A stretch of 64,000 bases of DNA from a candidate division FCPU426 bacterium. Lineage in GTDB: Bacteria > Oederibacteriota > Muellerivitia > Muellerivitales > Muellerivitaceae. The position numbers and the translations under genes were made by a program. Of the stretch, positions 5,369-33,603 are shown piece after piece (position 1 is the stretch's first letter; each line of letters begins with the position of its first letter). The stretch is from contig DAIDGV010000024.1 of NCBI GenBank assembly GCA_027452205.1, positions 30,750-94,749 on the forward strand, in the 5' to 3' direction. The notes beneath the pieces are model-generated. The model made no database searches, had not been told where the DNA came from, and saw only the letters and a list, made by a program, of their open reading frames with translations.

Positions 5369-6340
5369 TTAGCGAGGATCAAGATTCTCGAACAAGGAAC
5401 TGATCGACTGTTCATTGTGGATACGCATGATCGCATCCCCCAGCAAGGGGCCCACCGGGAGGACCGTGATCTTAGGGACCCGTTTCTCCGGAGGGAGGGG
5501 AATACTATCGGTAATGATGACTTCTTTCAAGGGCGAATTTTGCAGGTTTTGCACGGCGTTTCCCGACAAAATGCCATGGCTACAGCAGGCATAGACCTCG
5601 GTAGCGCCGGCCTTCAGGATGGCCCCAACCGCTTGTACCATCGACCCGCCGGTGGAGATCATGTCGTCGGGAATAAGGACTGAACGGCCCTTCACTTCCC
5701 CGATCAGGTTCATCACTTCCACCTCGTTGGGCCCCCAGCGGCGCTTATCGACCACCGCCAAGTCCGTCCCCAGGGCCTTCGCGAAGGCGCGGGCCATCTT
5801 GATACCGCCCACGTCCGGGGAAACTACCATCAGGTCCTTCAGGTTCTTCTGGCGGACATAGTTCACGATGACCGGCAGGGCGTAAAGATGGTCCACCGGG
5901 ATGTCGAAGAAACCCTGGATCTGCTGGGCGTGAAGGTCCATCGAAAGCACCCGGTCCGCGCCGGCGGTGGTGATGATATTGGCCATCAGTTTGGCCGTAA
6001 TGGGCACCCGGGGCTGGTCTTTGCGGTCCTGGCGGGCGTAACCGTAATAAGGAAGCACGGCAGTGATACGGCGGGCGGAGGCCCGGCGGAAAGCGTCAAT
6101 CATGATGAGCAATTCGATGACGTTATCGTTCACCGGCGGGCAGGTAGGTTGGACGATGAAGATGTCCCGGCCGCGCACATCCTCGTTGATCTTGATGCGG
6201 ATCTCGCCCTCGGAAAAGCGGCTGACCATCAGGTCGCCCAGGGGAACTTTCAGGAACTCACAGATCTTCTTGGCCAGGTCCGGGTTGGCGGTCCCGCTGA
6301 AGATTTTCAACCCATTGATCGCAGTGGAGCTCGGATTCAT
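5369..6340 (-). CDS. prs: ribose-phosphate pyrophosphokinase (PRPP synthetase)
   Basis: Canonical Prs motifs are present (…IFSGTANPDLAKKI…, …PYYGYARQDRK…, …DLHAQQIQGFFDIPVDHL…). The start is most likely the internal ATG at 6340, which is preceded by AAGGAA. The ORF track instead extends the frame to 6433. Confidence 0.88.
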   Translation of the reverse strand: MNPSSTAINGLKIFSGTANPDLAKKICEFLKVPLGDLMVSRFSEGEIRIKINEDVRGRDIFIVQPTCPPVNDNVIELLIMIDAFRRASARRITAVLPYYGYARQDRKDQPRVPITAKLMANIITTAGADRVLSMDLHAQQIQGFFDIPVDHLYALPVIVNYVRQKNLKDLMVVSPDVGGIKMARAFAKALGTDLAVVDKRRWGPNEVEVMNLIGEVKGRSVLIPDDMISTGGSMVQAVGAILKAGATEVYACCSHGILSGNAVQNLQNSPLKEVIITDSIPLPPEKRVPKITVLPVGPLLGDAIMRIHNEQSISSLFENLDPR

Positions 6341-12526: not shown

Positions 12527-12730
12527 TGAACATTAACTAATTGTGGCAAACCTCGTAAGAAACATCGTCCATATTCAATTGCGACCAACAGAATACGCCC
12601 ATCCATCCCGAGTGATTGGCGGTTCATGGGGCGAACCGGCCAACATATAGTGAAATGTTCTTGCCGGGATGAAGCTTTATCGAGAATTGTGTAGAATCGT
12701 TCTGTTATTTATTTTCCGTAGGAATTACCC

Positions 12731-13186
12731 ATGAAAAAATTACAACTGGCTTTGTTTGCTCTCTTGGTCCTAGTGGGTTCTCAATCTTGGGCAACCCGCC
12801 AAGTGAACGAGCTCGAAAAGAATTATCCGGTCCTTTCCGCCTTTTACCCTGTCCCGGACAATGAAAAAAAACAATTTAAAGACGTTTATTTCCGCTTGGG
12901 CTGGAAGGCCCGTAAGCCTTACCGGATCGCCGTCCAATTCACCAACCAATCCTATAAGACCGTACCATTGAAGTTCGCCTTGAAGGATGTGACCACCCAA
13001 AAAATGGTCATTCTGGATAAAGGGAAGAACACGGCGGTGGGCGCGGAAACCTTAGGATCCATCTCCGAAGGGGCTCTTTGGTCGGCCCTCATCCAGGATA
13101 AGAAGGATCATTTCATCCTCAGGGTCTGGGATAAGGATGGGAGCGAGACTCGTTCAAGAGAGCTCGTTTTCCAAGAAAAGAAATGA
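12731..13186 (+). CDS. hypothetical secreted protein
   Basis: 151 aa; signal peptide MKKLQLALFALLVLVGSQSWA with cleavage-like SWA-T. No recognisable domain. Confidence 0.5.
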   Translation: MKKLQLALFALLVLVGSQSWATRQVNELEKNYPVLSAFYPVPDNEKKQFKDVYFRLGWKARKPYRIAVQFTNQSYKTVPLKFALKDVTTQKMVILDKGKNTAVGAETLGSISEGALWSALIQDKKDHFILRVWDKDGSETRSRELVFQEKK

Positions 13187-26043: not shown

Positions 26044-27351
26044 TTAGTGGTTCAAAAGGGCTTGGGCGGTCTGGATTCCCTGCTCCAGGGCCGATTCCAT
26101 GCTGCCATATTCCCACCGACCATACCGTCCCACCGAATACACATCCTGCTTTTGATAAAAACTCAAAAGCTCCTCAACGATCCCGTTACGAACATCGTCA
26201 TAAATGACATAAGCGCCCGGCAAGTCCAGATCGACCCGGGTCACAAGCTGCTTTTGGGAAGTGATCCAACCCAGTTCTTTCAGTTTTTTCACCGCATGCC
26301 GGCCTAATACCGCTGGATCTGGACGGCCACCCCGGTAAGAGAATTCCACATAGAGGGAATAATGGTTCTTGGGAGCCGCTGTCGGCACACAAGCGCTGAC
26401 CGAACCTGCCCGATGGAATTGAAATTCCTCCTCAGGGAAATAGACCCAACTATAAGGGATGGGCTGTTTCCCTTTGAGACCAAAATTGATGTTATAGATC
26501 GAAGTAGCTTTGAGTTCTTGGGCAGCCTTTCGAAGTCGCGAGGGCATGCCCTGAGTTAGCCGGACCAACTGCGGTAAAGGCAGGCTAGAGACCAAGTTCT
26601 GATAGTCGATCGTGAACCCTGACCCTAGGTAAGCTTGTTTCTTTTGAAGGTCCAGCCGATCCAAGCTGGCGCCCCTCCACAGATAAGGAAGTTCCGACGC
26701 GATGGTTTCGGGAAGCACCGAGATTCCGCCTTGGTCCGGATAAAGAAAAGTCGCATTGTAACCCGTATCCGACCATTTTTTCCTCAAGGCGCCCTCCACC
26801 ACTTCTTTTACCTTGGGCGATGGTACGAAGCGACCCATCCAATGGGTCGTCAGTTTCTCTAATGGGAATTTCCATAACTTTTGGTTGTAGGGGAACATGA
26901 AATGCTTCGAGATACCGTGTCCGAAGGAATCCACGCACCATTCCCGGAAGTTAGCCGGGGCCCGGGAGCTTGAATTGAACCGCCGATGAAGCTGAGCCTC
27001 CAAATAACCCAGGACGTTGTCCTTGGCGACCGAGGATGGTAACCCCGCGTTGTTCTCTTGGTAGGGATATTCGCTATAGGACCTTTGGCTATAGATCACC
27101 GCGTGACGGTGCCGCGTCTTGAAACTTTTACCGATGAACCGCTCCGCCCACCGATGGATCTCCGGTTTATGGAAATGCAAGAAATGCCCGGTGTAGTCGA
27201 AAGTGAACCCGTGATCCATGATGGTGCGGCACAGGCCGCCGAGGTTCTTTTGTTTTTCGACCAAGAGATAGGGTTTGAACTTGTCCGCTAGTTCCCGGGC
27301 GCAAGAAAGCCCCGCTAAACCACCCCCTGCGATCAGCGTTTCGACCTTCAT
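26044..27351 (-). CDS. FAD-dependent flavoprotein of the UDP-galactopyranose mutase / amine-oxidase superfamily
   Basis: 435 aa; N-terminal GGGLAGLSCA Rossmann motif. …TGHFLHF… resembles the UGM G-x-H-x-F-H segment. C-terminal …GRYGRWEYGSM… resembles the UGM terminal motif. Confidence 0.5.
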   Translation of the reverse strand: MKVETLIAGGGLAGLSCARELADKFKPYLLVEKQKNLGGLCRTIMDHGFTFDYTGHFLHFHKPEIHRWAERFIGKSFKTRHRHAVIYSQRSYSEYPYQENNAGLPSSVAKDNVLGYLEAQLHRRFNSSSRAPANFREWCVDSFGHGISKHFMFPYNQKLWKFPLEKLTTHWMGRFVPSPKVKEVVEGALRKKWSDTGYNATFLYPDQGGISVLPETIASELPYLWRGASLDRLDLQKKQAYLGSGFTIDYQNLVSSLPLPQLVRLTQGMPSRLRKAAQELKATSIYNINFGLKGKQPIPYSWVYFPEEEFQFHRAGSVSACVPTAAPKNHYSLYVEFSYRGGRPDPAVLGRHAVKKLKELGWITSQKQLVTRVDLDLPGAYVIYDDVRNGIVEELLSFYQKQDVYSVGRYGRWEYGSMESALEQGIQTAQALLNH

Positions 27352-28439
27352 TTTTTTTGGCCTTTTTTTGGCAGGCTGGGAGGTTCTTTCAGGAATATCT
27401 GGAAGCGACTTTCCTTGATCTTGACGATACCTTCATCCATTGGAATGAGCGCGACAAAAAGGGTGACCAGCATCAACGCGAAGAAGAACACCAGGATAAA
27501 GACTAGGGCCCTTTTTTCGGAAAGACGAACAAGAAATCCAGCCATGAGGACCAGGATAAAAGAGACGAACCAAAGGGTATGGACCGTCTGTTTGACCGTG
27601 AAGCCGATCTTGCGAAGCCGTAGGGCTAAATGATCATTGGAGCCCCGGAACATGGACCGGCCCCGGATGAAACGGATCATCATGACCAACGCGGTATCGT
27701 AGAGGGGAACGGCCAGGATAAGGACTGGAGCGCAAAGACCCACGATATTGTTCTGGGTATAACCATGGCCCATCGCTAGCGCCGAGAGGGTGAACCCTAA
27801 AAAGAGCGCGCCCGAGTCCCCCATATAAATACGGGCCGGTTGGTAATTGTAAGGCAAAAAACCCAGCACGCTGCCCGCCAAGACCGCGGCGGCCAATGGC
27901 ACATAACTATGCGCCGCCAAGGAAGGGACCATCACAAAACCTAAACAGGCGATGGCCACCACTCCGCTGGAAAGCCCATCCATGATGTCGATGATGTTCA
28001 CCGCGTTGGTCACCGCCAACACCCAAAAGATGGTCATCGCATAGGTCAGGATGGGATGGCTTGGAAGGAACTCGATCTTGAGGCCGAAGACGATCAAAAG
28101 GACCGCCGCCACGATCTCAAAGAAGAACTTCATGGCCGGGCTCAGGGAGAAAAGATCATCCACTAGACCCATCAAGGCCACGACCGTGCCGCCGATCAGG
28201 ATAGCGAAAAGGGCTTTGGTATCCGGCGGCGGGGCCAGGCTGAGCGTGCCGAAGAGGACTAGAAGGAACGAAAAATAAATAGCCAGGCCGCCCAAATAGG
28301 GGATGGGGGCTGTATGTTTTTTGAGTTGTCCGCTGGGCGCATCCAGGAATTGGGACTTCAGGGCGACCTTGCGGAAGACGGGGGTAAGCCCCAAGGAAAG
28401 GACGAAGGCGCAGATAAAGGTGATCCAGTTGGTGTTCAT
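27348..28439 (-). CDS. polyprenyl-phosphate HexNAc-1-phosphate transferase (WecA/MraY family, GT4 PNPT)
   Basis: Polytopic protein with MraY/WecA-like motifs (…IPYLGGLAI…, …NAVNIIDIMDGL…). The likely start is the ATG at 28439, which has a GGGAGG Shine-Dalgarno. The ORF track instead extends to a TTG at 28472. Confidence 0.8.
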   Translation of the reverse strand: MNTNWITFICAFVLSLGLTPVFRKVALKSQFLDAPSGQLKKHTAPIPYLGGLAIYFSFLLVLFGTLSLAPPPDTKALFAILIGGTVVALMGLVDDLFSLSPAMKFFFEIVAAVLLIVFGLKIEFLPSHPILTYAMTIFWVLAVTNAVNIIDIMDGLSSGVVAIACLGFVMVPSLAAHSYVPLAAAVLAGSVLGFLPYNYQPARIYMGDSGALFLGFTLSALAMGHGYTQNNIVGLCAPVLILAVPLYDTALVMMIRFIRGRSMFRGSNDHLALRLRKIGFTVKQTVHTLWFVSFILVLMAGFLVRLSEKRALVFILVFFFALMLVTLFVALIPMDEGIVKIKESRFQIFLKEPPSLPKKGQKK

Positions 28440-28559
28440 AGGTGTCCTCCCTGGTCTTTCGGCCACGGGCAATGGGAATCACAAAGGCATTAGAACTATA
28501 ACATAGGGCTTAAAGGCTTAACGGAACGAAAGGCTTTTTCCGGAAGCTTTTTGAGGCAT

Positions 28560-28596
28560 AAAAAAAGCCCCGGTGGGTCGGACCGAGGCTTGGAGG
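28560..28596 (-). terminator. terminator-like hairpin (bEBP gene terminator and/or attenuator in the wecA-like leader)
   Basis: Minus-strand RNA AAGCCUCGG-UCCGACCCAC-CGGGGCUU followed by UUUUUUU. It lies between the sigma-54 promoter and the wecA-like start codon. Confidence 0.5.
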
Positions 28597-28663
28597 CTGT
28601 TTAGATTGTTGATTCGTTTGAAAACCATCCAGTTGTCGCTGGCCGTTTTCACCTTTATTTAAA

Positions 28664-28678
28664 GCAACCATCGTGCCA
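28664..28678 (-). promoter_or_regulatory. sigma-54 (-24/-12) promoter
   Basis: Minus-strand TGGCACGATGGTTGCT matches the consensus TGGCAC-N5-TTGC exactly. It points toward the wecA-like gene. Confidence 0.65.
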
Positions 28679-28750
28679 ACTGGGACTTTTTTAAAAAGCC
28701 TTTAATTCGGCCCCTTTTGAAAACCCCGTGTAAAGAATTTCGTCTCAAAT

Positions 28751-28800
28751 GTGTAAAATATATTAACACTATTTACACTATGTATCAATAATTTACACTT
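28751..28800. promoter_or_regulatory. AT-rich repeat cluster, candidate enhancer (UAS) for the adjacent bEBP
   Basis: Four copies of GTGTAAA(T)/GTGTTAA in about 50 bp, including the inverted pair GTGTAAAATATATTAACAC. It lies 70-120 bp upstream of the sigma-54 promoter and immediately 3' of the activator gene. Confidence 0.5.
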
Positions 28801-30688
28801 ACGACTCCGTATGAATACCGTATTTACGGATCTTTTGATACAGCGTGGGTCGGCTGATCCCTAGCCGTTGGGCCGCTTCCTTCTTGTTGTAGCGGGATTC
28901 TTGGAGCACTTTCAGGATCATTTCTCGTTCCACCGATTGGAGTACCCCCGAAGAAGGCAAGGTCCTTTCTTCTACCGGGTTCGAGGCCACCAACAACGGC
29001 GAACCAGTCAGTTCGGCGGGCAAATGTTCGGGCCGGATGACCACGTCATCGTTCAGTGTCACGATCCGTTCGACCACGTTCTCCAGCTCACGCACATTTC
29101 CCGGCCAGCGGTATTGCTGCATGAGGACCAAGGCTTCTTTCGAAACTCCTTCGAACCGGGTCTGGCGTTTTGACTTCATTTTATCCAGGAAGTATCGGAT
29201 CAAAAGTTGAAGATCACCCTCTCTGGCGCGTAGCGGTGGCATCTCCACGACAATAACATTGAGCCGGTAAAAAAGGTCCTCACGGAAACGGCCGGTCTGG
29301 ATGGCTTGTTTAAGGTCGCGGTTGGTGGCGGCAATGACCCGTATATCCACCTTTACCGTCTCGTTCCCGCCTACCCGTTCCAGTTGGCGCTCTTGGAGTA
29401 CCCGTAAAAGTTTGACTTGGGTCGAAAGGGATATTTCCCCGATCTCGTCCAAAAAGACGGACCCCTGGTTGGCCGCCTCGAACTTACCTTGTTTTTGTCC
29501 CAGGGCTCCGGTGAAGGAACCCTTTTCATGCCCGAAGAGCTCGCTTTCCAACAGGGATTCGCTCAGTGCCGAACAGTTGATCGCCACGAAAGGTTTGTCA
29601 TGCCTGGCCGACAGCTCGTGAATGGACCGGGCCACTAATTCTTTTCCCGTTCCGTTCTCGCCCAAAATGAGTACCGTGGCGTCACTGGCGGCGGCCCGTT
29701 TGATGAGTTCTTGGATCTGTTTCATCGATCGGCTTTCGCCGACTAGATGTGTCTCTTCCCCGCGCCGTTCAGGCTTGGCGGCCGCCGCAGAGACCATGGA
29801 TTTGGACAAAGAGAAAAGGATCGAAGCCGCGTCCTTGGAGGACTTCACGAATTCCTCGTAATCCTGTTTCATCTGGCCCGTAAGGCCCTCGTGATAATAG
29901 ACCTGTCCCAGGTTATAGATAGCGTTCTTATGGTCCGGGTCTTTTTGAAGAACGGACTTGAATTCGACAATGGCTTTTTCCATTTCATTCTTCTTGAAAT
30001 AACAGACCCCCAAGTCATTCTGCAAATTCAGCTTTTCGGCGCCGTCGGGCAATATCTTCAGGGCTTTTTTATAGACCGATATGGCCTCATCGTAACGCTC
30101 CAGGGTCATCAAACAGTCGCCCAAGCCACCCAGGGCTAGGACGTTCTTGGGGCCTGTCTTTAAAGCGATCTCATATTGTTCGAGCGCGTTCTCGACATCG
30201 CCCCGCTGTTTGAAGAGCATCCCCAGGTTTAACCGGCATTGCAGTTGTAAACTCTCTTGAGTATGGAAAAGGCCTAAATAAAAACTGCCCGGAGTCAATG
30301 GATGAATGAGCCGGAGGGTCTCAGAAAAGGCGAACATGGCATCCCCCACCCGCCCCCGTTTGAGATGGATAAGACCCATGTTGAACCGGACATCCAATAA
30401 ATCGTGCCGCAGCTTGAGGGCGGTTTCGTAATGATCCAAAGCGTCATCATCGCGTTGTAAGTGGAAAGAAGCGTGCCCCATGTCCCGGAAGGCGAAGAAA
30501 CTATTCGGTCTTTTCTTGAGCGTGGCGCGAAAAAGCTCCAGGGCTTGGGCATATTCGCCTTGTTCGAAGGCATCCATGCCTTCGACCGTAGTCTTATCCA
30601 AGGGTTCATAGGCGATACCGCAGACCGGGCAAAAACGGAAAGCTTCTTGCGTACGCTCGCCACATTCCCGGCAAAGGAAGCTGTCCAT
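28799..30688 (-). CDS. sigma-54-dependent transcriptional activator (bEBP) with N-terminal zinc ribbon and TPR sensor region
   Basis: 629 aa. N-terminal CRECG…CPVCG, followed by about 300 aa of TPR repeats. AAA+ sigma-54 activator core (GESRSMKQI…[14 protein letters not shown]…[21 protein letters not shown]-like). C-terminal Fis-type HTH. Confidence 0.85.
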
Positions 30689-30690
30689 GG

Positions 30691-31074
30691 TCAGCCCCTT
30701 CCCCTGGGCTTTTTAGTCGCCTTTTTGGAGGCCATCTCGTTCTTTTTGCCTGTCAATTGGCGGATCTGGAGGGTGGCTAGTTTGGCGCCCTGGGGTAGGT
30801 TTGTATATCGCTTCTCCAGCTTCTGATACCAAGCCAAGGCTTCTTTGGTCTTCCCTTCTTTTTGGAGTTTGTAACCCTTTCGGAACTCCTTTTCGAACTC
30901 GATGAACTTCTCTTGCTCTTCCCGAGAAAGTTTGGTGGTCCAAAGATGGGCGAATTCGGTCAGCGCCGCCATAGTCATGAGATAGATGAAGTAGGGGGGG
31001 AAAGCGTACGCGGCCAAAAGGGCGATGATAGTCAGCCCGCCCCAATCCTCTTTTTTTAAGATGGTCTTAGCCAT
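30691..31074 (-). CDS. hypothetical small membrane protein co-transcribed with the bEBP
   Basis: One TM helix ([25 protein letters not shown]) then a Lys/Glu-rich tail. The stop overlaps the bEBP start (ATGA). The start is uncertain: ATG at 31074 with GAGGGG upstream, or the longer ORF starting at 31143. Confidence 0.45.
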
Positions 31075-31442
31075 GTACCCCTCGTGTAAAAGAACCTGAC
31101 ACCTAAAGACGCAAAAGTGGCTTGCTACAGATTGAACAGTCACATTCTACGCCCGAGCTAAGGGTGCTTGAAGCTTTGGTTTTTGATTTTGCCTTAAAAA
31201 CCCAGTCTCATCCCTGCAAGCCCCCAGACAATGGCGTAAAAATGCAGCGATTCCGTAGCGCAAGGGGGCGCCTCTTGGAAAGCTTCAGTCCCCTGTTTTT
31301 TGCCAAAACCGTGTCGCTCATAACTAAGGACCCACGGGGGGATGGGTGGAGCAGTAGTCTCTCGGCATTCGTAATTTTCTGATCCACGCAGGTGCGTGGC
31401 GGGCTTAAAGGGATGAGGCTAAAAGAAAAAGTCTGCACAAAA

Positions 31443-31474
31443 CAAAAAAGCCCCGGTGGAATTCCACCGAGGCT
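31443..31474 (-). terminator. rho-independent terminator downstream of pnp
   Basis: Minus-strand GCCUCGGUGG-AAUU-CCACCGGGGC followed by UUUUUUGUUUU. Confidence 0.7.
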
Positions 31475-31494
31475 TTGGTTTTACGAGCGGATCG

Positions 31495-33603
31495 TTAATT
31501 CTTCTTATAATCCGCGATATTCAGGCCCAAGGCTTCCTTGCGGGAAAGCTTGATCTTCTTGGTTTTCGGGTCGATCCCGATGCACTTCACCAAGAGTTCA
31601 TCACCTTCCTTCAGGACGTCTTCCACCCGTTCCACCCGCTTGTTGTCCAGCTGGGAAACGTGCACCAGACCGTCTGTACCCGGAAGGATCTCGACAAAAG
31701 CACCGAAGTCCATGATCTTCTTGACCGTACCGAAGTAGACCTTACCTTCTTCCGCTTCAGCCATAAGGCCGTTGATGAAGTTTTGGGCGTTCTCGATATC
31801 TTTGCCATTGGCTGAAGCGATGGCGACCGTACCATCGTCCTCCACGTTGATATCGACCTTATAGTCTTCTTGGATCTTCTTGATCATCGCACCGCCCTTA
31901 CCGATGATGTCGCGGATCTTGTCCACGGGGATCTTCATCGAAACGATCCGGGGAGCGTAATCCGACATTTTGGTGCGAGGCGCCGACAGGCTCTTATCCA
32001 TGATATCCAAGATGGTCAAGCGGCCTTGCTTGGCCTGGGTCAGGCCCTTTTCAACGACCTCAAAAGTGAGGCCGGTGATCTTGATGTCCATTTGGATGGC
32101 AGTGATGCCTTTACGGGTACCGGCCACTTTGAAGTCCATATCACCGAAATGATCTTCCAAACCTTGGATGTCGGTCAGGATAGCGTACTTGGACAGGTCT
32201 TCATTGGAGACCAAACCTAGAGCCACACCCGCGCAAGCGCTCTTTAAAGGAACGCCGGCGTCCATCAACGACAAAGAGCCGCCGCAGACCGAGGCCATGG
32301 AGGACGAACCGTTCGATTCCAGGATATCCGAGGTCACTTGGATGGTGTAAGGGAACGAATCCGCCGGTGGCAGCAGAGGCTCCAACGCGCGTTCGGCCAA
32401 ATTGCCATGGCCGATCTCACGACGGCCCGGACTCATGATGCGCTTGATCTCGCCCACCGAGTAAGGCGGGAAATTGTAGTGAAGCATGAAACGCTTCTTT
32501 TGTTCGCCTTCGAGCTCTTCGAGGATCTGTTGATCGTCCTTCGTGCCCAGGGTCGAGACCACCAAAGCCTGGGTCTGACCACGGGTAAAGAGCGCCGAAC
32601 CGTGGGTCCGGGGCAATATCCCGACTTCGGTCGTGATCGGGCGGAATTCATCGAATTTCCGGCCGTCTTGGCGTTCATGACGGTCCAAAATGGCCTCGCG
32701 GACCAGGTCGGACTCGATGGAATGAAGGATCGATTTGATGTCCTTCTCCTTTTCCGGGTACTTTTCCTTCAAGGCCGTGACGGTCTCTTTAGCGACCGCG
32801 CTGATGGCGTCTTGACGCTTGAGTTTGTCCTTTTCCGCCATGGCGGTCTTCATCTTCACCAAAGCGAAGCCCTTCACATCCGCGACCAAAGCCGCGTCCG
32901 GCAAGACCAGGGTCAAGGCGCGTTTCGATTTCCCGGCGCGCTTCACCAGTTCATCCTGCAGGTCGATGATTTTTTGGCATTCTTTGTGGGCCAGTTTGAT
33001 GGCTTCGAGAACGACCGATTCGGACTCTTCTTTCGCCCCGCCTTCGACCATGACGATGGCCTTACGACTAGCTGCCACGATCAGATCGAGAGTGCTGTTT
33101 TCCATCTGCTTGAATGTCGGGTTGACGACCAAGTCGCCGTTCACCCGGCCAACGCGCACGCAGCCAAAACGATCGGCCACGGGGATATCCGAGACCGCCA
33201 AAGCGGCGGAAGCGGCGGAAACCGCCAAAACATCGGAATTGTTCTCTTGGTCCGACGAGACCACCGTGGCCATCAACTGGACTTCATTGAAGAAGCCATC
33301 CGGGAAAAGCGGACGGATCGGACGGTCGATCAAGCGGGAGGTCAAGATCTCGGTCGTCCGGGGACGGCCTTCGCGCTTGAACCAGCCGCCGGGGATACGA
33401 CCCGCAGCCGACGAGCGTTCGCGGTATTCAACGGTGAGCGGGAAAAAATCCTTGCCGGGCATCGGTTCTTTTGCCCCGACGACGGCGACAATGACGACGG
33501 TGTCGCCATATTGGGCGACGATCGAACCATCGGCTTGCTTGGCCATACGGCCGGTCTCAAATGACAGCGTGGTGTGGCCTAGCGTAGTGCTGACACGTTC
33601 CAT
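31495..33603 (-). CDS. pnp: polynucleotide phosphorylase
   Basis: 702 aa; two RNase PH domains, KH and S1 domains (…GRRFMLHYNFPP…, …KFGAVRIA-like C-terminus). Confidence 0.92.
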   Translation of the reverse strand: MERVSTTLGHTTLSFETGRMAKQADGSIVAQYGDTVVIVAVVGAKEPMPGKDFFPLTVEYRERSSAAGRIPGGWFKREGRPRTTEILTSRLIDRPIRPLFPDGFFNEVQLMATVVSSDQENNSDVLAVSAASAALAVSDIPVADRFGCVRVGRVNGDLVVNPTFKQMENSTLDLIVAASRKAIVMVEGGAKEESESVVLEAIKLAHKECQKIIDLQDELVKRAGKSKRALTLVLPDAALVADVKGFALVKMKTAMAEKDKLKRQDAISAVAKETVTALKEKYPEKEKDIKSILHSIESDLVREAILDRHERQDGRKFDEFRPITTEVGILPRTHGSALFTRGQTQALVVSTLGTKDDQQILEELEGEQKKRFMLHYNFPPYSVGEIKRIMSPGRREIGHGNLAERALEPLLPPADSFPYTIQVTSDILESNGSSSMASVCGGSLSLMDAGVPLKSACAGVALGLVSNEDLSKYAILTDIQGLEDHFGDMDFKVAGTRKGITAIQMDIKITGLTFEVVEKGLTQAKQGRLTILDIMDKSLSAPRTKMSDYAPRIVSMKIPVDKIRDIIGKGGAMIKKIQEDYKVDINVEDDGTVAIASANGKDIENAQNFINGLMAEAEEGKVYFGTVKKIMDFGAFVEILPGTDGLVHVSQLDNKRVERVEDVLKEGDELLVKCIGIDPKTKKIKLSRKEALGLNIADYKKN

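Follow-up and report, generated by a model that had tools for sequence, protein, structure and literature searches.

A predicted small RNA gene with a sigma-54 promoter directly downstream of a TPR-type enhancer-binding protein gene in a candidate division FCPU426 bacterium

In the 64-kb stretch of contig DAIDGV010000024.1 analysed here (the window; 64,000 nucleotides from a candidate division FCPU426 bacterium), the minus strand carries a gene for a bacterial enhancer-binding protein (bEBP) followed by an intergenic region of 359 bp, and positions 28558-28798 probably constitute a self-contained gene for a non-coding RNA of ∼95 nt, transcribed with sigma-54 and activated by the upstream bEBP, which is of the tetratricopeptide repeat (TPR) type. 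The probability of this reading is put at about 0.75. Comparison of related loci establishes the conservation of the unit, its geometry, the structure of the RNA and the absence of an open reading frame (ORF) from it; transcription, dependence on sigma-54 and on the bEBP, the exact 5′ end and the targets are what we infer from the sequence. An earlier note on this DNA had described an activator gene, a repeat enhancer, a -24/-12 promoter and a hairpin leading into a glycan-initiation operon, and the minus strand does carry all of these; some coordinates and counts have been slightly corrected. Coordinates below are those of the window and refer to the minus strand unless marked otherwise.

The comparison rests on loci recovered in several searches, labelled L001 onwards. 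A genome-collection search returned a single true ortholog of the bEBP (L001, from a candidate division FCPU426 metagenome-assembled genome, 73% identity), a large protein database held ∼70 full-length orthologs (56-82% identity), and a metagenome search with the TPR region of the bEBP yielded ∼30 orthologous loci, to which more distant ones were added by protein look-up. The set used for the module comprises ∼24 related metagenomic loci, in which the activators are 51-85% identical to that of the window. Gene order in the window is pnp, a small gene termed orf150, the bEBP gene, the intergenic region, a sugar-phosphate transferase gene (GT4), a flavoprotein gene, a gene for a TPR protein and ispE, and the synteny rpsO-pnp-orf150-bEBP-GT4-flavoprotein is kept throughout the related loci.

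The gene that had been taken for an activator (28799-30688, 629 aa) does encode a bEBP. Its product contains a Sigma54_activat domain (PF00158, 245 bits) with the Walker A sequence GENGTGKE and a Walker B region of DEIGE, an AAA_lid_14 domain (PF25601), and a C-terminal Fis-type helix-turn-helix, HTH_8 (PF02954, 55 bits, residues 584-623). The N-terminal portion matches TPR families and consists of a CxxC...CxxC segment and TPR repeats, with no receiver domain. Crude motif scans of the window for a second bEBP returned just this one.

Downstream of the bEBP gene, TGGCACGATGGTTGCT (28663-28678) places GG at -25/-24 and GC at -13/-12 and, as had been reported, agrees with the sigma-54 consensus TGGCAC-N5-TTGCW at every specified position. 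A scan for comparable sites, which the earlier note had proposed, found it to be the sole match in the window at zero or one mismatch, and matches with two mismatches are fewer than expected by chance. A rough estimate for an exact match is ∼0.06 per window; because 1.65 matches are expected at one mismatch or fewer, the single match is not significant in itself, and the promoter is regarded as real because it is conserved across relatives. In 18 distinct aligned sequences neither TGGCA nor TTGC changes, in contrast to the drifting N5 spacer, and 18 of the 22 loci with downstream sequence have TGGCAY-N5-TTGCW at a distance of 113-146 nt downstream of the bEBP stop codon. Promoter-like sites are also present in L051, L074, L122, L126 and L127, and in L128 TATGC replaces TTGC.

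Exact copies of GTGTAAA number nine in the window, against 3.5 expected, and four of them fall within 71 bp, at 28792-28798 and 28772-28778 on the minus strand and at 28751-28757 and 28728-28734 on the plus strand; a copy with one mismatch, GTGTTAA, occupies 28763-28769 (minus strand). The previous count of four copies within 28751-28800 holds for three exact copies and one variant, the fourth exact copy lying 17 bp further on. The region had rightly been singled out as AT-rich, 28728-28800 being, at 23% GC, the lowest 73-nt stretch of the window, although the genomic GC content of ∼58% against which it was set is not that of the window (54.4%). When 19-mers are scored against GTGTAAA-N5-TTTACAC (14 specified positions), the repeats resolve into two 19-bp dyads at ∼-137 and ∼-108 from the predicted start in all 23 loci. 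Dyad A, GTGTAAATTATTGATACAT (28780-28798, centre ∼-137), starts right after the bEBP stop codon; among the 23 loci its position is -136 to -150 in 22 and -127 in the remaining one, L122. Dyad B, GTGTTAATATATTTTACAC (28751-28769, centre ∼-108), matches at 13 of 14 positions and lies 29 bp from dyad A; it is located at -98 to -120 in every one of the 23 loci, and the spacing between the two is always 28-30 bp. Dyads at fixed positions, together with an invariant promoter core around a drifting spacer, argue that the activator gene, repeat enhancer and -24/-12 promoter are a real, phylogenetically footprinted unit, in agreement with the module originally proposed.

A third copy of the dyad, GTGTCAGGTTCTTTTACAC (31084-31102, 12 of 14 positions), ends 10 nt upstream of the orf150 ATG, and in each of the 18 loci examined one such site is present in the pnp-to-bEBP interval, before or at the orf150 start; no sigma-54 site was found beside it. 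Since the operon that encodes the bEBP is itself preceded by such a dyad, the motif can be linked to this activator. GTGTAAA-N5-TTTACAC is most likely the operator recognized by the bEBP, and the third copy is a probable autoregulatory operator of the orf150-bEBP operon. At the Escherichia coli promoter glnAp2, two dyad NtrC sites ∼three helical turns apart are located ∼110-140 bp upstream of the -24/-12 promoter, an arrangement that the predicted activator dyads at -137 and -108 resemble, although the half-site is GTGTAAA here and TGCACC for NtrC.

Between the dyads and the promoter is an A/T-rich element at ∼-47 (28693-28707), AATTAAAGGCTTTTT in the window and TTTTAAAGGGYTTTT in most relatives, which, judged by eye, keeps the same distance to the promoter in most loci and also appears as weak dyad-scan matches at -46 to -58 in L044, L048, L055 and L069. 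It is possibly a site for an architectural protein or an intrinsic bend; no integration host factor consensus was found by eye between dyads and promoter.

It could be supposed that none of this is regulatory, the hairpin being simply the terminator of the activator gene, the -24/-12 match a chance occurrence and the repeats AT-rich filler. A lone consensus match in 64 kb is, as calculated above, not improbable, and no other terminator follows the bEBP stop codon. Nonetheless, this view is barely tenable, as the promoter core, the dyads, their spacing and the transcript are conserved among loci whose bEBPs are 51-85% identical, whereas the promoter spacer and the pnp terminators drift. Insertions, moreover, respect the unit: in L051, L074 and L127 they lie between the bEBP stop codon and the dyads, so that dyads, promoter and RNA remain together.

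The predicted RNA itself (∼95 nt, 28558-28652, its 3′ end formed by the U-tract) is conserved in both sequence and structure. Covariance model R1, built from 18 sequences, has a sole match in the window, at 28558-28654 (96.7 bits), and 19 distinct matches of 62-101 bits in the related loci, with one strong match per locus; shorter or divergent versions were recognized by eye in L122, L126, L127 and L128. Each version has the same architecture, namely a 5′ hairpin, a single-stranded A/C-rich linker, CCUCC and a terminator. The minimum free energy (MFE) of the window's RNA is -28.4 kcal/mol (z -2.39). In the model alignment, 96.6% of cells are paired, compared with 88.5% in shuffles and 18-63% in slid controls, and the covariation score of 0.373, against 0.204 in shuffles, was reached by 0 of 500 shuffles.

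The 5′ stem-loop, SL1 (28619-28651), has the apical loop CGACAA in the window, and its four inner pairs all vary on both sides (CG/UA, AU/GC). The extended SL1 stem could not be scored by column because the 5′ arms stand in different alignment registers, and per-sequence folds were used instead; these give a 5′ hairpin in 23 of 23 versions, with a mean z of -2.2 against dinucleotide shuffles. The loops of SL1 vary (CGACAA, GAAA, UUGACCC), indicating that the structure is kept beyond the sequence. In two loci (L066, 3135-3150; L127, ∼5443-5462) SL1 carries the UUGACCC loop of the terminator, so that the motif is present twice in the RNA. The linker, AAACGAAUCAA... (28592-28618), is conserved as UUUCAAACGAAYCAAAA and ends in an anti-Shine-Dalgarno-like CCUCC (28592-28596), which is exact in 20 of 23 versions and located 0-4 nt before the terminator; across linker and CCUCC the mean probability of being unpaired is 0.79-0.99. 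In eight of the more divergent versions CCUCC extends to UCACCUCCU(UA), giving 8-11 nt identical to the 3′ tail of 16S rRNA, the canonical form of which is GAUCACCUCCUUA.

The transcript terminates in an intrinsic terminator (28558-28591) with stem arms AAGCCUCGGU/ACCGGGGCUU, the loop CCGACCC and then U7. Its stem-loop (28591-28565) consists of 10 pairs, six of them G-C, and a 7-nt loop, and T7 follows at 28564-28558; a stable hairpin with its U-tract had thus been correctly recognized, the coordinates being amended from 28560-28596 to 28591-28558. Across 19 sequences 98.9% of the terminator's cells are paired, and the difference between full and truncated MFE indicates that it contributes ∼14-20 kcal/mol. 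The loop is conserved as YGACCCA, with GACCC within it in 21 of 23 versions. Since both loop and stem of the pnp terminators in the same loci vary freely, the conserved GACCC loop suggests that this hairpin is constrained beyond what termination needs. No other terminator was found after the bEBP stop codon, including the interval between the stop and the dyads, and the hairpin therefore probably ends the orf150-bEBP transcripts too. With regard to the three roles that had been offered for the hairpin, the 3′ end of a small RNA (sRNA) of ∼90 nt fits best, termination of the activator gene is partly right, and attenuation is unlikely, no conserved antiterminator having been found.

The pnp terminator of the window, AAAGCCTCGGTGGAATTCCACCGGGGCTTTTTT (31440-31475), shares its stem arms with the sRNA terminator, and this accounts for weak model matches at pnp 3′ ends in several loci. 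The idea of a shared terminator word was rejected, because the pnp terminators diverge across loci and the two other exact matches to ACCGGGGCTT in the window, at positions 682 and 49029, have neither a hairpin nor a T-run; the resemblance looks incidental.

Neither a conserved ORF nor a conserved ribosome-binding site could be detected in the RNA among 19 sequences: five have no ORF of at least eight codons, the others differ in frame and start, and a Shine-Dalgarno-like match upstream of an ORF start is present just in the window and L069. The transcript is, on these comparisons, non-coding, structured and conserved. That the sigma-54 promoter instead drives a small protein-coding gene is suggested by two distant loci, where a sigma-54-like promoter downstream of the bEBP homolog precedes an ORF of 62-65 codons with a common motif. 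For the clade of the window this is scarcely to be entertained, given the ORF-free sequences and shifting frames just described, a Shine-Dalgarno-like match in only two versions, and a pattern of conservation that is structural, with a covarying stem, and not codon-like.

The two distant loci are of interest in their own right. L124 (6440-6780) and L125 (6140-6560) encode TPR-bEBP homologs at 41% and 38% identity, respectively, followed by the sigma-54-like promoters AGGTATGATTATTGCG (L124) and TGGTATAATTTTTGCC (L125), the ORF, and then a terminator, in place of the sRNA. The two ORFs share GHxGxGR...EAM(R/Q)K(V/A)KG(Y/F)GGVKKG and have no Pfam or NCBIfam match. In L125, parAB and not GT4 is found downstream of the small product. 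Perhaps the ancestral arrangement was an activator with its own sigma-54 promoter and a small product, and the product was swapped.

The layout also admits a reading in which the sigma-54 promoter drives the GT4-flavoprotein operon, the 95-nt RNA serving as its leader and the hairpin as a conditional terminator overcome by a protein or ligand. The RNA and GT4 adjoin on the same strand with no gene between them in all clade loci, and the CCUCC of the leader could in principle mask the GGAGG of GT4 in a read-through transcript. This arrangement is nevertheless considered unlikely. The terminator is strong and invariant, and no conserved antiterminator pairing appeared in 19 folds cut before the 3′ arm of the terminator; in these truncated folds its 5′ arm is unpaired or engaged in short, non-conserved pairings, with the exception of L055, where 9 of 10 positions are paired. 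No Rfam riboswitch, leader or cis-regulatory family is matched. The 95 nt between promoter and terminator are conserved in sequence and structure, whereas the spacer between terminator and GT4 varies from ∼65 to 200 nt and shows little conservation outside a -10-like box and the ribosome-binding site. The latter reads AAGGA in L062 and L063, by inspection complementary to the CCUCC motif over just 4 bp, and the translation-initiation region of GT4 pairs with the RNA no better than background (-9.7 against a mean of -10.3 when the linker plus CCUCC was run in RNAduplex against ∼50 translation-initiation regions of the window). Finally, the distant L125 has activator, sigma-54-like promoter and small terminated product without GT4.

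An alternative source of GT4 transcription is suggested by TGTTATAGT (28495-28503), an extended -10-like box between the terminator and GT4. This sequence or a close variant (TGTTATATT, TGTTATTAT, TGTTATTCT, TGTTATGAA) is found in that position in 17 loci and in L122; it is probably a promoter element of the GT4 operon itself, and the GT4-flavoprotein operon most likely has its own promoter. The headline claim of the earlier note, that the module is a switch for a glycan-initiation operon, is therefore not supported as the main reading, in view of the conservation of the RNA itself, the strong invariant terminator, the separate -10-like box and the occurrence of L125 without GT4. The same note had called sigma-54 control of a glycan pathway unusual. 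This goes too far, as a general role for sigma-54 in controlling the bacterial exterior has been proposed (PMC3162934). A direct sigma-54 switch of a WecA-like operon would be a tempting annotation of this region, and the present analysis corrects it.

Several observations weigh against an independent, sigma-54-dependent sRNA. GT4 follows the RNA on the same strand in every clade locus that reaches that far, and as the whole neighbourhood is syntenic this adjacency offers no means of telling a leader from an independent sRNA; there is no clear or convincing -35 sequence at the TGTTATAGT box, and some read-through into GT4 is possible. The 5′ end of the RNA (+1 = 28652 ±2) is predicted from promoter geometry alone. 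The bEBP carries GSFTGA in place of the canonical GAFTGA loop, with F and T kept. An RpoN-box motif, indicative of rpoN, was not found in the window, the fetched flanks or any fetched locus, so that the presence of sigma-54 in the lineage is deduced from the bEBP and the promoter. A target search that covered the window and flanks came back empty: apart from the RNA gene itself, the window contains no reverse complement of the linker, and among orthologous initiation regions of neighbouring genes in 19 loci no gene stands above background.

Under the favoured reading, the bEBP would bind through its HTH_8 domain to the two GTGTAAA-N5-TTTACAC dyads at ∼-137 and ∼-108, oligomerise, and contact the sigma-54 holoenzyme held in a closed complex at TGGCAC-N5-TTGCT, possibly helped by DNA looping across the A/T-rich element at ∼-47, whereupon ATP hydrolysis would open the promoter. 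The transcript would then fold into the 5′ hairpin, the A/C-rich linker ending in CCUCC, and the strong terminator that releases the RNA and that probably ends the orf150-bEBP transcripts as well. By way of the third dyad, upstream of orf150, the bEBP would regulate its own operon, and its activity might in turn be controlled through the co-transcribed putative membrane protein orf150.

If the RNA is such an sRNA, the chances are about even that it acts by pairing in trans with the Shine-Dalgarno regions of at least one mRNA through CCUCC and the linker, blocking translation, in which case the GACCC loop could be a second C-rich contact or a protein-binding site. The initiation regions of pnp average -11.0 in the duplex calculations against a background of -8.4 (standard deviation 3.4), a value that is due to the strong AAGGAGG site of that gene. 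The sigma-54-dependent sRNA might instead bind and sequester a protein, such as an RNA chaperone or translational regulator, as CrcZ does with Hfq/Crc. The YGACCCA terminator loop, conserved in 21 of 23 versions and recurring as UUGACCC in SL1 of L066 and L127, looks like a recognition motif, and the linker is conserved although the search revealed no target complementary to it. Where known protein sponges have a large number of repeated sites, this RNA has one copy each of the linker and CCUCC and no GGA repeats of the CsrA type, and crude motif scans of the window detected no Hfq or CsrA signature; sequestration is for these reasons regarded as rather doubtful, though worth keeping in view.

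A more speculative proposal, for which we would claim little likelihood, is that the RNA imitates the 3′ tail of 16S rRNA in a regulated manner and constitutes the sole direct sigma-54 output of a TPR-sensor activator. A seed resembling the 16S tail is unusual and, if the proposal were true, the exposed (UCA)CCUCC(U) of the induced RNA would occupy strong Shine-Dalgarno sites in competition with ribosomes, acting as a broad brake on translation with no single target, and the GACCC loop would add selectivity or recruit a protein. In a weaker form of the idea, an envelope signal received through orf150 and the TPR domain would be linked by the RNA to how envelope-glycan genes such as GT4 are translated.

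The RNA family is new, although Pseudomonas (cbrB-crcZ) and Myxococcus (nla19-pxr) offer precedents for its layout. Searched with Rfam 15 at gathering thresholds, the whole window gave no match besides one tRNA, and at E≤10 over 28350-28900 just spurious matches of 10-21 bits were obtained; as no covariance model of CrcZ, Pxr, Qrr or GlmY is matched, the RNA falls outside those families. CrcZ is ∼400 nt long and carries several A-rich Hfq/Crc-binding motifs by which it acts as a protein sponge. In the cbrB-crcZ system the sRNA gene lies directly downstream of the bEBP gene, on the same strand, with a sigma-54 promoter in the short intergenic region, and one terminator serves both the primary sRNA and the bEBP read-through transcripts (PMC5113210). 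Here too there is no terminator between the bEBP stop codon and the promoter, but the two RNAs have no sequence or structure similarity detectable with Rfam, the present one being ∼95 nt with one CCUCC; CbrB, moreover, is a two-component response regulator, whereas the bEBP here has a TPR/CxxC N-terminus and no receiver domain.

In myxobacteria, the nla19-pxr system consists of a 108-nt sigma-54-dependent sRNA downstream of an activator gene, with a sigma-54 promoter and stem-loops (PMC5568312). Three stem-loops are predicted for Pxr, and its targets are described as still unknown in a further report (PMC11928866). The likeness lies in an sRNA of ∼100 nt encoded in the gap that follows a sigma-54 activator gene; no homology was detected, and the lineage, the activator input domain and the downstream gene all differ. 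The genes for the Qrr and GlmY sRNAs are situated next to the activator locus, either divergent from or upstream of the activator operon. For LuxO-Qrr in Vibrio and GlrR-GlmY in Enterobacteria, one or a few sigma-54-dependent sRNAs are described as the main direct output of the bEBP (PMC10162802, PMC4152352). Seeds and mechanisms differ from those proposed here, no homology was detected, and the sRNA of the window is directly downstream of its activator gene. With respect to design alone, the single-stranded CCUCC and GACCC loop recall the Firmicutes RNAs RsaE/RoxS, short sRNAs in which, according to two reports, exposed C-rich motifs pair with G-rich Shine-Dalgarno regions (PMC6158497, PMC8216469); these are not homologous, their promoter type differs, and the pairing here is a prediction.

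To our knowledge no sRNA has been described in this lineage, which is known just from metagenomes and to which the locus would add a regulatory RNA family with promoter, enhancer and probable autoregulatory operator. It would also extend the design of a bEBP gene followed by its own sRNA to a distant lineage and to an activator of the TPR type outside the two-component systems. The predicted operator GTGTAAA-N5-TTTACAC and the covariance model could serve to annotate these genomes and to search them for the regulon.

Upstream of the bEBP gene, orf150 (30691-31074) encodes 127 aa from an ATG at 31074, is found directly upstream of the bEBP gene in all related loci and has pnp (31495-33603, minus strand) further upstream. 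Its product, ∼125 aa across loci, is hydrophobic in an N-terminal segment, helical and TPR-like in the middle and basic in its tail, and has no match to a Pfam or NCBIfam family. The orf150 stop codon lies 2 nt before the bEBP start in the window, and 2 nt before or overlapping it across loci, suggesting that orf150 is probably the first gene of the activator operon; its product could be a signalling partner of the TPR-bEBP or an anti-activator acting on it.

Downstream of the RNA, GT4 (27348-28439) encodes a polyprenyl-phosphate sugar-phosphate transferase of the MraY/WecA family (PF00953, Glycos_transf_4, 115 bits), with the GGGAGG ribosome-binding site at 28451-28446 and the ATG at 28439-28437, as previously described. 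It scores 104 bits against the WecA model TIGR02380, below the cut-off of 326. The next gene (26044-27351) encodes an amine-oxidase-like flavin adenine dinucleotide (FAD) protein (PF01593, PF13450), and its start overlaps the GT4 stop, which suggests co-transcription. The pair had been annotated as WecA-like and as like UDP-galactopyranose mutase; the first label stands at the level of MraY/WecA family membership, and the second is weakened, the likeness being N-terminal and amounting to 39 bits against a cut-off of 304. GT4 starts with ATG in the window and with TTG or apparently CTG in many relatives, judged by the aligned ...GGAGGACACC(N)NTG AAC... region. In closer relatives (L042-L048, L061), but not in the window, the 5′ untranslated region of GT4 contains a conserved CCGG...CCGGG hairpin-like segment.

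The spot right after the bEBP stop codon seems to be insertion-prone. In L001 and L056 the gene runs straight into unrelated DNA, and neither contig extends far enough to show the module. The DNA in L001 (5000-8075) carries two ORFs, of 246 and 518 aa, on the reverse strand, possibly an insertion sequence, and this insertion made the locus uninformative for comparison; in L056 (1944-3500) the unrelated DNA starts inside dyad A. L074 (1340-2200) has ∼0.85 kb of unrelated AT-rich DNA after the bEBP gene, and L127 (4873-5280) ∼400 bp of extra DNA. In L051 (11886-12790) an ORF of 268 aa is inserted right after the bEBP stop and is followed by a duplicated bEBP 3′ remnant (∼12700-12795) and then by intact dyads, promoter and sRNA, an arrangement such as an insertion or duplication might have left behind.

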